IMG/VR virus record: IMGVR_UViG_2671180631_000013
Direction: 5' to 3' (one strand)
DNA length: 33,040 nucleotides
Origin: a virus
Taxonomy: Duplodnaviria > Heunggongvirae > Uroviricota > Caudoviricetes
Below are positions 12,001 to 15,000 of this stretch, piece by piece. The position numbers are program-made. Every line of letters begins with the position of its first letter. Within the stretch, counting starts at the first letter, position 1.

Positions 12001-15000
12001 TCCAGAAGCGGGGAATCTGTTATCAAGGAAGAGTGGGTGAAGGAACTATGTCAGCATTGCCATGGTAAGGGAGAAGTCAGCACAGCGTGCAGAGGGTGTA
12101 AGGGTAAAGGTATTGTCCTGGATGAAAAAAGAACCCGGCTTCATGGTGTGCCTGTTTATAAGATTTGTGGGCGTTGCAATGGCAACCGGTTTAGCCGTTT
12201 ACCAACCACACTGGCGCGGCATCATGTCCAGAAACTGGTACCGGACCTGACGGATTATCAGTGGTACAAAGGATATGCAGACGTTATTAATAAACTGGTT
12301 ACAAAGTGCTGGCAGGAAGAAGCGTATGCTGAATCGCAATTGAGAAAAGTGACAAGATAGATAATTTTCGCCGAAGATGTCGACGTGATACTTGCATTTT
12401 TCAAAAAATATGGATAAGATTTTCTCAACGATGGGCCTTGTATGTCTACCGTTGGTAAATGTCAAAAACCCGCCGCTGAGCGGGTTTTTTGTGCCTGATG
12501 TCTCATGAAACTATGAAATGGATTGGTGCGTTAAACATTTTTTCTTATTATCTTTTAGATTTTGGAGAGATGGTTAACGTCTGTATTCCAGAAACTCGAT
12601 GGTTATTTAATAAATTAGTTTCAATGATGCTTCTAGGTTATGACTGTAATGAAAAAGGTATTAATAGCAGCGATAGGTTTTTGTTTAGTTGGTTGTGCAG
12701 GTATGAAATTACCTGAGTATTCGCAAGTTAAAGCAAGTCCGTATTATACAGATTGCCGTGCGTTTGCCATGGATGTTTATAAAAATGATGGATACAGCAA
12801 AATTGCGAAAACTACTATCCTTAGCATGGATGATGTGAAAGCTAGATATATTGTGACAGGGTGTGTAGTTGCTATGGGGAAAAACACTGTAGAGGAAATC
12901 AAAGCTGATCTCTCTGCTAAAGGGAGTTCTTTTGGGCTTATCAGTGGAGCTTGTTCTAGTGCGGCATGTCGGGTTGATGTAGAGCAGCAAATGAACGCTT
13001 ATGTACTTGGTAGTTATTATGCTGCAAATAAAAAATTCCCGGATAAAATGAAAGCAGAGTTTTAAGCAAACCTTGTTTTCGATTATATGTCGAAGATAAA
13101 TGTTAGTAACGGCATAATAAGTAAATATATAGCTGTGATAGCAACCCGCCACTGAGCGGGTTTTTTGTACCCGTAAACTTGGTGCAGTACAGTAAACACG
13201 CTGGTGGTCGTGAATACTGACTTTTTATCTTGCTGGCTTTTTAGACAAGAGTTATTGGTATGTCATGTTAACCAGAAGGGAAAAAGACATGCTAAAACAG
13301 CAAGATATGACAGAAACCGCCGCCGCAGTCCTTCATTTCTTACCTGCTGACAAGTGGGTAACGCCACGCATGATGACGAGAACTACCGGAGTAAGCGAAG
13401 CCCGGTGCCAGTTAATACTGACTCAGTTAGTTCTGGCGGGTCTGGCGAAGGATAACGGCGGGTACGGGAATAAATTCAGACGCTGCCAGTAATGGCGGTT
13501 TCCTGCTGTGAAAATGGGCGGCTGGTGGGTGTTGGTAGCACCTGCCAGCCATTCGCTCATGCTTACTGGTCACAAGCGAACCACGGCCCACTGCTTTAGC
13601 GCAAAAGCAGAGTGAGCCTACCAGAGTTACGCTTACTGATCCATGAAAAATACTGTAAAAATAAACAGTGTTGATTTAATCAACGCTGATTGCCTGCATT
13701 TTATTCAGTCCCTGCCTGATGATTCCATTGACCTGATTGTTACCGATCCGCCTTACTTCAAGGTGAAACCCAACGGTTGGGACAATCAGTGGAAAGGGGA
13801 CGAAGATTACCTTAAGTGGCTGGACCACTGTCTGGCCCAGTTCTGGCGGGTGTTGAAACCTGCCGGAAGCCTTTACCTGTTCTGTGGGCATCGCCTGGCA
13901 TCTGATATTGAGATCATGATGCGTGAACGTTTCAACGTGCTTAACCATATCATCTGGGCGAAGCCGTCCGGACGTTGGAATGGGTGTAATAAAGAAAGTC
14001 TGCGCGCATATTTTCCTGCCACAGAGCGCGTTCTGTTTGCTGAACATTACCAGGGGCCATATCGCGGCAAAAGTGACGGCTATGCGGCAAAAGAAAGGGA
14101 ACTCAAACAGCACATAATGGCACCGCTGATATCGTATTTCAGGGATGCTCGTGCCGAACTGGGTATAACGGCAAAACAAATTGCCGAAGCCACAGGTAAG
14201 AAAAATATGGTTTCCCACTGGTTTGGTGCCAGTCAGTGGCAGTTGCCGAATGAGGCTGACTATCGGAAGTTACAGGCACTGTTTTCCCGTATAGCGGCAG
14301 AGAAGTTTCAGGAACAACAACTGGAACAACCACACCACCAGCTGGTGGCATCTTATGATTCACTGAATCGTAAATATTCTGAATTGCTGGATGAGTTTAA
14401 ATCTCTCCGGCGCTATTTCTCCGTATCAGTCTCCGTGCCTTATACCGATGTCTGGATGCATAAACCCGTTCAGTTCTACCCGGGGAAACATCCGTGTGAG
14501 AAACCGGCGGATATGCTCAGGCAAATAATCAATGCCAGTAGTCGACCAGGTGATCTGGTTGCTGATTTTTTTATGGGATCCGGTTCCACAATAAAAGCAG
14601 CAATGGCGCTGGGGCGTCGGGCCTTAGGTGTTGAGCTTGAGTCAGAGCGGTTTAATCAGACAGTGAAAGAGATAAACGAGCTGGTGGGGAAATAATCTGG
14701 TGGCCACGTCAGGTGGCCTTTTTATTTCCATTACACAGCACCCGCATCTGCGAGGTGGGGTTATGAAATCCATGGATAAGTTAACAACGGGTGTCGCCTA
14801 TGGCACCTCAGCAGGTAGTGCCGGGTACTGGTTTTTACAGTTGCTCGATAAAGTCACGCCCTCACAGTGGGCGGCAATAGGTGTGCTGGGTAGTCTGGTA
14901 TTTGGCTTGCTGNNNNNNNNNNNNNNNNNNNNNNNNNNNNNNNNNNNNNNNNNNNNNNNNNNNNNNNNNNNNNNNNNNNNNNNNNNNNNNNNNNNNNNNN

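Follow-up and report, generated by a model that had tools for sequence, protein, structure and literature searches.

The window analysed here is a 33,040-nucleotide (nt) stretch of viral DNA (Caudoviricetes; IMG/VR record IMGVR_UViG_2671180631_000013). It is a lambdoid Escherichia coli prophage: positions 12300-14900 occur with 100% identity in E. coli A14 and in two further genomes, and the phages Ayreon and mEp460 show 98.7% identity over the same positions. A first-pass annotation had pointed to an orphan DNA methyltransferase gene, with a gene for a small helix-turn-helix protein upstream of it, between the antiterminator gene Q and the lysis genes. This part of the window contains the following features, all on the plus strand.

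11566-12360 (+): antiterminator Q gene; PF03589 Antiterm, E 6.9e-54; annotated in Ayreon and E. coli A14
12392-12420 (+): late promoter-like site, TTGCAT-17-TAAGAT, read from the sequence
12464-12490 (+): tR'-like intrinsic terminator, read from the sequence; the Ayreon annotation has a terminator in the corresponding position
12640-13065 (+): gene for a lipoprotein of 141 amino acids (aa), a cargo gene (moron); lipobox LVGC; phrog_4748 (function unknown)
13143-13170 (+): terminator 3' of the lipoprotein gene, from a terminator scan
13289-13492 (+): gene for a winged-helix protein of 67 aa; phrog_331
13508-13642 (+): structured leader RNA, from folding and covariation
13643-14695 (+): gene for an M.EcoGII-family beta-class N6-adenine methyltransferase of 350 aa; PF01555
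14702-14727 (+): intrinsic terminator between the methyltransferase and holin genes, GGCCACGTCAGGTGGCC and then a T run; also annotated at this position in Ayreon
14763-14913 (+): start of the holin gene essD, placed by reference to the E. coli A14 locus, which is 100% identical

The start of Q annotated in the relatives corresponds to about 11608, and the site at 12392-12420 is probably the late promoter. The methyltransferase gene lies 3' of Q, of this site, of the tR'-like terminator and of two more terminator-like hairpins, and just before the holin gene. Its position immediately 5' of the lysis genes is kept at 48-61% protein identity in Yersinia P840, PhiR46_1 and VHML. The module of small gene, spacer and methyltransferase gene was found in 1152 of 5426 complete E. 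coli genomes; in P27 and in a Stx2a phage it is followed by tRNAs and stx.

The M.EcoGII-family methyltransferase

The product of 13643-14695 matched PF01555 (N6_N4_Mtase, E 2.2e-42) over aa 29-341. A DPPY motif at aa 35-38 (13745-13756) and an FMGSG motif at aa 310-314 (14570-14584) are both intact and stand in the order of the beta class. The domain match, the motif order and the position between Q and the holin gene bear out the orphan beta-class enzyme of the Q-dependent late region that the first-pass annotation had described. Its statement that the prophage carries two methyltransferases also held. The first of these is a context feature outside the module:

8406-9059 (+): gene for a Dam-type N6-adenine methyltransferase, in the nin-like region

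This protein belongs to the phage Dam family (PF05869, E 9.7e-46, 156 bits with a cut-off of 28.1; TIGR01712, 255.6 bits with a cut-off of 97.05), and its counterpart in the identical prophage of E. coli A14 is annotated as a phage N-6-adenine-methyltransferase.

The enzyme of the late region is 100% identical to the methylase of phage cdtI. Alignment with M.EcoGII gave 281 identical residues of 349 (about 81%) over the full length with two one-residue gaps, the M.EcoGII sequence having been machine-read from the PDF supplement of PMC11551740 (Table S1) and containing a few errors. Identity to reconstructed ancestors of the family was 88.6% (Anc291), 86.3% (Anc289) and 70.3% (SUPREM), and the enzyme is closer to Anc291 than to M.EcoGII itself. 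Like M.EcoGII and M.EcoGI from the prophages of E. coli O104:H4 C227-11 (PMC5778455), it has the beta-class motif order and a length of 349-350 aa, is prophage-borne and has no nuclease partner. A close relative of M.EcoGII (92.6% identical) in the Stx2a phage EH2246 has the same winged-helix gene and leader on its 5' side and tRNAs and stx on its 3' side. By its sequence, the methyltransferase is thus an ordinary member of the already characterised M.EcoGII family. In 933W-like Stx2a phages (H97-H104) only the last ~35 methyltransferase codons are kept, at ~66% identity, an apparent deletion remnant.

M.EcoGII methylates adenine in any context, is active when cloned alone, is not expressed in the lysogen and slows growth when it is expressed (PMC5778455). 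DNA methylated by enzymes of this family withstands many restriction enzymes, and lysogen silence, toxicity and the blocking of restriction have been described for the family (PMC5778455; PMC12707154; PMC6602927). Judging by 70-89% identity to M.EcoGII, Anc291 and SUPREM, the enzyme in the window would likewise methylate adenine in any context. Alternatively, it could be sequence-specific and give protection from a single restriction system. Most members of PF01555 recognise specific sites, the nearest solved relatives of the enzyme are M.RsrI, M.MboIIA and CcrM, and about 19% of its residues differ from M.EcoGII. However, its alignment with M.EcoGII is free of gaps over aa 121-260, which includes the entire target-recognition domain (aa 160-237), and the similarity takes in the linker as well. 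All of the reconstructed ancestors methylated both DNA and RNA, and those tested for it, Anc291 and SUPREM, were largely non-site-specific on RNA, as is M.EcoGII (PMC11551740); the ancestors bracket the window enzyme in sequence space. Furthermore, homologs from Shiga toxin-producing E. coli (92-94% similar) are listed as "nonspecific" in REBASE-based tables and left no mark on the chromosome (PMC6602927). Together, these points make a sequence-specific enzyme quite unlikely. The first-pass annotation had expected a target motif to be defined; membership of the M.EcoGII family means that none is expected, and methylome work is better directed at global adenine methylation of induced phage DNA than at a motif.

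We also considered whether the methyltransferase could be one half of an ordinary restriction-modification system with an overlooked nuclease. Two genes would fit this idea, the HNHc_6 gene listed below and a GIY-YIG family gene that lies in P27 between Q and the winged-helix gene.

between the Dam-type gene and Q (+): gene for a DUF968 (HNHc_6) protein, 5' of Q

However, DUF968 is a fixed lambdoid gene, Q stands between it and the methyltransferase gene, and the slot 5' of the module carries different cargo in each relative. A survey of open reading frames on both strands between Q and the holin gene found only the lipoprotein, winged-helix and methyltransferase genes and no nuclease, and the PADLOC models gave no match for the two neighbours or for the DUF968 protein. 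In addition, methylation without sequence specificity leaves no cognate site that a partner nuclease could cut. An overlooked nuclease is therefore highly improbable, in agreement with the first-pass annotation, which had reported none. The observation made there is real but ordinary, a common and already characterised kind of phage methyltransferase, and the enzyme, as a common variant, adds little in itself. The part of the locus worth following is the leader.

A structured leader RNA before the methyltransferase gene

No Shine-Dalgarno sequence is found in the 19 bases that precede the methyltransferase ATG (gagttacgcttactgatcc), as had been noted before. In a comparison of 230 nt 5' of M.EcoGII-type genes from ~40 species, the spacer was the most conserved non-coding part of the module. 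The leader in the window folds with a minimum free energy of -68.9 kcal/mol (z = -5.3 relative to shuffled sequences), and the following pairings were assigned to it.

13514-13519 with 13555-13560 (+): helix P1a
13515-13519 with 13586-13590 (+): helix P1b, the alternative to P1a
13520-13533 with 13537-13550 (+): helix P2, the inverted repeat of the first-pass annotation
13552-13557 with 13575-13580 (+): helix P3
13591-13597 with 13604-13610 (+): helix P4
13568-13572 with 13637-13641 (+): GGUCA box with UGAUC, which ends 1 nt before the AUG; pairing of leader and start

The inverted repeat that had been placed at about 13505-13560 is real, although its length of 15 bp was overstated: the arms are 12 nt long (13520-13531 and 13539-13550) with 83% complementarity, and as RNA the hairpin has 14 bp when G-U pairs are counted.

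Misalignment of the variable hairpins in plain MAFFT alignments limited RNAalifold to P1 and part of P4. A covariance model was therefore built with P2 and P4 only, and the remaining helices were scored on the alignments that it produced. This model gave 36 matches in 556 kb, all of them on the coding strand and directly 5' of a methyltransferase gene or of a com-methyltransferase pair, while more distant PF01555 genes gave no match to it. The leader model R1 matched this position alone in the related loci. Among 44 distinct leader sequences, 82-83% of the cells were paired compared with 64-66% in shuffled data (0/500), and sliding the partners by 1-3 columns reduced the pairing to 25-44%. Changes on both sides were seen in 12 of the 14 pairs of P2 and in 7 of the 7 pairs of P4. 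The outer pair of P1a occurs as AU (30 sequences) or GC (7); one pair of P3 is CG in 15 and UA in 15, with 0/2000 in the permutation test for this helix; P1b is almost invariant and 99% paired. The P2 hairpin varies in sequence between species yet remains a hairpin. Since the sequence changes freely while the pairing is kept, the inverted repeat is an RNA stem and not an operator-like palindrome.

Two further features connect the leader to its own alternative folds and to the start codon. The 5' strand, RUGGGC, has two conserved complementary partners, a near one (P1a) and a distant one (P1b). P3 is nested with P1b but knotted with P1a, which suggests two conformations or a pseudoknot. Moreover, a conserved box, GGUCA(Y), has its complement in the start region, which is UGAUC just before the AUG in the E. 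coli type and AUGACC itself in other types. True pairs of box and start beat permuted ones (1/2000), in a set that represents only a few independent lineages. In most copies of the leader the reading frame starts 41-53 nt after the GCCCA junction, and the unrelated proteins encoded 3' of it nearly all start with Met-Thr (AUGACC or close variants). An alternative partner for the start region, a second copy of GUCAU that follows P4, was unsupported (1294/2000 permutations). A coding function of the spacer was rejected: in relatives, indels disrupt the small open reading frames at 13492-13599 and 13508-13615.

A search of Rfam 15 over 2.6 kb gave no match inside 13493-13642 at E <= 1, and a search with 231 nt at E <= 10 gave only two chance-level matches on the opposite strand, one of which overlaps the leader. 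We found no description of such a leader RNA in the searchable literature, which is weak evidence of absence, and none of the region upstream of M.EcoGII in the papers on that enzyme that we consulted.

A strong hairpin is predicted at 13666-13688, in codons 8-15 of the methyltransferase gene (GUGUUGAUU/AAUCAACGC), and many E. coli-type relatives, drawn from several genera, share the element ACUGU...ACAGU (13652-13669); the RNA structure of the leader may extend into the coding region. In Xenorhabdus and Photorhabdus (L020-L029, L045 and L053) a shorter leader of ~95 nt lies between the winged-helix and methyltransferase genes, with GGUGAAA...UUUCACC around a P2-like hairpin, and the methyltransferase there seems to start with GTG or TTG.

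The leader was then sought in other viral sequences. A first collection pattern was too loose, with 70 of 80 loci being chance matches, and these were reused as a negative control. A strict pattern found 93 copies in viral contigs compared with about 5 that we estimate to occur by chance. According to the downstream gene, the copies are distributed as follows.

ParB_N or ParB-methyltransferase proteins: 47 copies
Mom family (PF25680): 17 copies
M.EcoGII-type: 9 copies
C5 cytosine methyltransferases: 5 copies
small membrane (holin-like) proteins: 7 copies
undetermined: 8 copies

A DNA-modification gene follows the leader in 78 of the 85 classifiable viral copies. In 43 loci a Mom-family gene occurs ~1 kb or less downstream and is followed by terminase genes. 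The leader was seen before C5, Mom and ParB_N or ParB-methyltransferase genes in loci L175, L218, L236 and L238 and in ~80 viral loci (L260-L374), and the order at many leader loci is ParB-like gene, Mom and terminase genes. In a Yersinia myophage the leader is followed by a ParB_N gene and then by a gene for a ParB_N-methyltransferase. Metagenomes gave 58 matches to the strict pattern, of which ~23 are real: the model confirmed 20, and 16 of these precede genes of DNA-modification type, compared with only 3 of the 38 unconfirmed matches, which are apparently weak but genuine copies.

In two Vibrio species and one Cellvibrionaceae genome, a gene of the Com family of zinc-ribbon proteins (PF10122) lies between the leader and an M.EcoGII-type gene, and the leader ends at the com start codon.

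L035, 2352-2468: Com-like gene, 21.5 bits (just below the cut-off)
L038, ~2331-2441 (the listed open reading frame starts at 2304): Com-like gene, 24.6 bits
L047, ~2326-2490: Com-like gene, 46.9 bits

These loci invite comparison with com-mom of phage Mu. In both systems there is a late DNA-modification gene, which for the window enzyme would, as in its family, be toxic and silent in the lysogen; its control is predicted to work through mRNA structure at the start site, and Mom-family genes carry the leader in many phages. On the other hand, Mu has no copy of the leader and the window has no Com reading frame (PF10122), the winged-helix protein is unrelated to the zinc ribbon of Com, and the window enzyme performs methylation that depends on S-adenosylmethionine (SAM) whereas Mom makes a different adenine modification. 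A riboswitch for SAM or S-adenosylhomocysteine was set aside, as the leader also precedes Mom, com and ParB-domain genes. Mom is not known to be SAM-dependent, and the presence of Mom and Com behind the same leader argues against a SAM riboswitch.

Between tR' and S, phage lambda (NC_001416) carries a truncated leader copy at 45016-45129 (L376, 1217-1330; 24.3 bits, E 3.7e-5 in 2.7 kb). The match covers the 5' half of the leader model. P2, a P1a-like pairing and the GGUCAC box are retained, but this copy lacks P4 as well as the AACCAAGGCCCA junction, and no modification gene follows it. This copy looks like a relic.

The lambda copy also bears on a different view of the conserved spacer, namely that it is a site of RNA processing or stability, an antitermination element or a generic leader of late operons, and not a translational switch. 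The leader always lies behind a terminator-like hairpin, in Yersinia P840 and PhiR46_1 directly after the tR'-like terminator, and besides the copy between tR' and S in lambda, 7 of the 93 viral copies and 2 metagenome copies precede holin-like genes. However, the leader keeps a fixed distance of 41-53 nt to the start codon, a conserved box within it is complementary to the start region and this pairing covaries, the AUGACC start is common to unrelated enzymes, and DNA-modification genes follow in nearly all classifiable copies. We consider a role other than a translational switch to be rather unlikely.

Taken together, the data favor the following reading, which we regard as probable: the window carries an M.EcoGII-family orphan methyltransferase in a lambdoid prophage, expressed late in dependence on Q, which hypermethylates progeny DNA and has the structured leader as a second control. 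The terminators at 12464-12490 and 13143-13170 suggest that the gene would be silent in the lysogen. After induction, only RNA polymerase modified by Q would read through the terminators to the methyltransferase gene; the progeny genomes would be hypermethylated before packaging, and restriction would be blunted in the next host. Murray et al. proposed that M.EcoGII is switched on at induction to defeat restriction (PMC5778455), and the late, anti-restriction role suggested by the first-pass annotation agrees with this and with what is proposed for the family (PMC5778455; PMC12707154). The second layer of control would be the ~135 nt directly before the methyltransferase start codon, in which the GGUCA(Y) box would pair with the start region and the two partners of RUGGGC would give rise to two conformations. 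We infer that the leader acts as a gate on the translation of a late gene with a presumably toxic product and no Shine-Dalgarno sequence.

Several points weigh against this reading. The translational gating is deduced from structure only, and the fold itself is ambiguous, because the nested pairing (P1b with P3) and the local pairing (P1a) are both supported. The tests on the leader ignore relatedness, and kinship among the sequences inflates significance that is based on shuffling. The U-tract of the hairpin that separates the winged-helix gene from the leader is poor in the window, so that a terminator function of this hairpin is doubtful here. The leader may serve late genes generally, since in some relatives, as in the truncated lambda copy, it precedes the holin gene. 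With regard to the enzyme, the 19% divergence from M.EcoGII could in principle alter its specificity, and the idea that enzymes of this family hypermethylate packaged phage DNA has been published as a hypothesis only.

A broader proposal, which we put forward tentatively and hold somewhat short of an even chance, is that 13508-13642 represents an undescribed class of cis-regulatory RNA. This would be a portable leader of ~105-150 nt including the start codon, placed before unrelated and potentially lethal DNA-modification genes (M.EcoGII-type, C5, ParB-fused methyltransferases, Mom and Com) in phages of Enterobacterales, Vibrio and relatives, with a relic in lambda. Its mutually exclusive 5'-strand pairings would form a switch that licenses translation only late in infection, on a signal from some ligand or factor. 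To our knowledge, the mechanism by which lethal DNA-modification enzymes are kept off until late is understood only for Mu mom. If the proposal is true, an RNA cassette common to four or five enzyme families is a second, RNA-based answer to late-only control, and the leader would aid the annotation of start codons and the expression of DNA-modification genes.

The small winged-helix protein and the upstream slot

The small gene at 13289-13492 encodes 67 aa, or 75 aa from an alternative ATG at 13265, and its product matches phrog_331 (E 4.6e-26). Matches to Pfam (MarR_2 and TrmB, both winged helix) are below threshold, and homologs carry the NCBI name "TrmB family". An AlphaFold2 model (predicted local distance difference test score 87.4) has the topology H-b-H-H-b-b, and Foldseek with this model returned only winged-helix domains, with template modelling (TM) scores up to 0.84; the closest folds include the nucleic-acid binders Z-alpha and SelB. 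The helix-turn-helix protein of the first-pass annotation is thus specifically a winged helix. The key Zα residues are presumably not kept, and this likeness is a lead only.

The small gene lies ~150 nt 5' of the methyltransferase gene in E. coli, Citrobacter, Scandinavium, Proteus, Providencia, Xenorhabdus and Photorhabdus, and Yersinia P840 and PhiR46_1 have distant winged-helix-like reading frames on the same side. It was found in only 18 of the 42 related loci compared (~17 of the species-level genome loci), always immediately upstream, and is missing from about 60%. It was not found 5' of the leader in Kosakonia, Rosenbergiella, Enterobacter, Ewingella, Yersinia proxima, Tatumella, Acerihabitans and VHML, and the methyltransferase gene and leader persist at loci without it.

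The protein could regulate the methyltransferase, either on the inverted repeat in the manner of a C protein or on the leader RNA in the manner of Com. In favor of this, the pair with its ~150-nt spacer is kept across Q types and in two variants of the small protein that are 52% identical and lie behind different Q families and cargo; the recognition helix, RCQLILTQL, is invariant; nucleic-acid binders are among the closest folds; and Com occupies an analogous place in the Vibrio loci. There is also a formal likeness to type II restriction-modification systems with C proteins, in which the gene of a small DNA-binding protein lies 5' of the methyltransferase gene with an inverted repeat between them. 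However, the fold is a winged helix and not of the Xre type, there is no nuclease gene, and the small gene is dispensable in many relatives. The repeat in the window is an RNA stem of free sequence and not a conserved C-box, so that there is no conserved operator, and M.EcoGII cloned alone is active (PMC5778455). Regulation by the small protein is for these reasons unlikely, and the controller-like role that had been suggested for it was not upheld. It is an optional accessory, a stand-alone winged helix and not a C-type controller. The segments 13217-13243 and 13276-13289 hold a direct repeat 5' of its gene, CTGACTTTTTA/CTGGCTTTTTA, and an imperfect inverted partner, which overlaps the ribosome-binding region of the gene.

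The bases that follow tR' in the window (TTTTTTGTGCCTGA, region 12392-12500) are the same as those directly 5' of the leader in Yersinia P840 and PhiR46_1, where the junction is located at ~2290-2360 (L007) and ~2330-2390 (L008). Because TTTTTTGTGCCTGA is common to both places, the two genes that now separate tR' from the leader, those for the lipoprotein and the winged-helix protein, appear to have been inserted later. The lipoprotein gene, which lies between tR' and the methylase module, is cargo bracketed by terminators (12464-12490 and 13143-13170), and homology to phage cdtI starts at ~13143, exactly at its terminator. Relatives hold differing cargo between Q and the winged-helix gene, such as a minus-strand AAA_15/AAA_21 ATPase gene (L003, 2136-3587) and the GIY-YIG family gene of P27 (L011, 1208-2437). 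The slot looks like a hot spot for cargo or defence genes.

Two lysis genes follow the holin gene.

15306-15839 (+): lysozyme gene
15821-16303 (+): Rz gene

Between the holin start and the lysozyme gene, a run of N at 14914-15240 masks the 3' end of the holin gene and a ydfR-like gene, which comes next in the identical prophage of E. coli A14.

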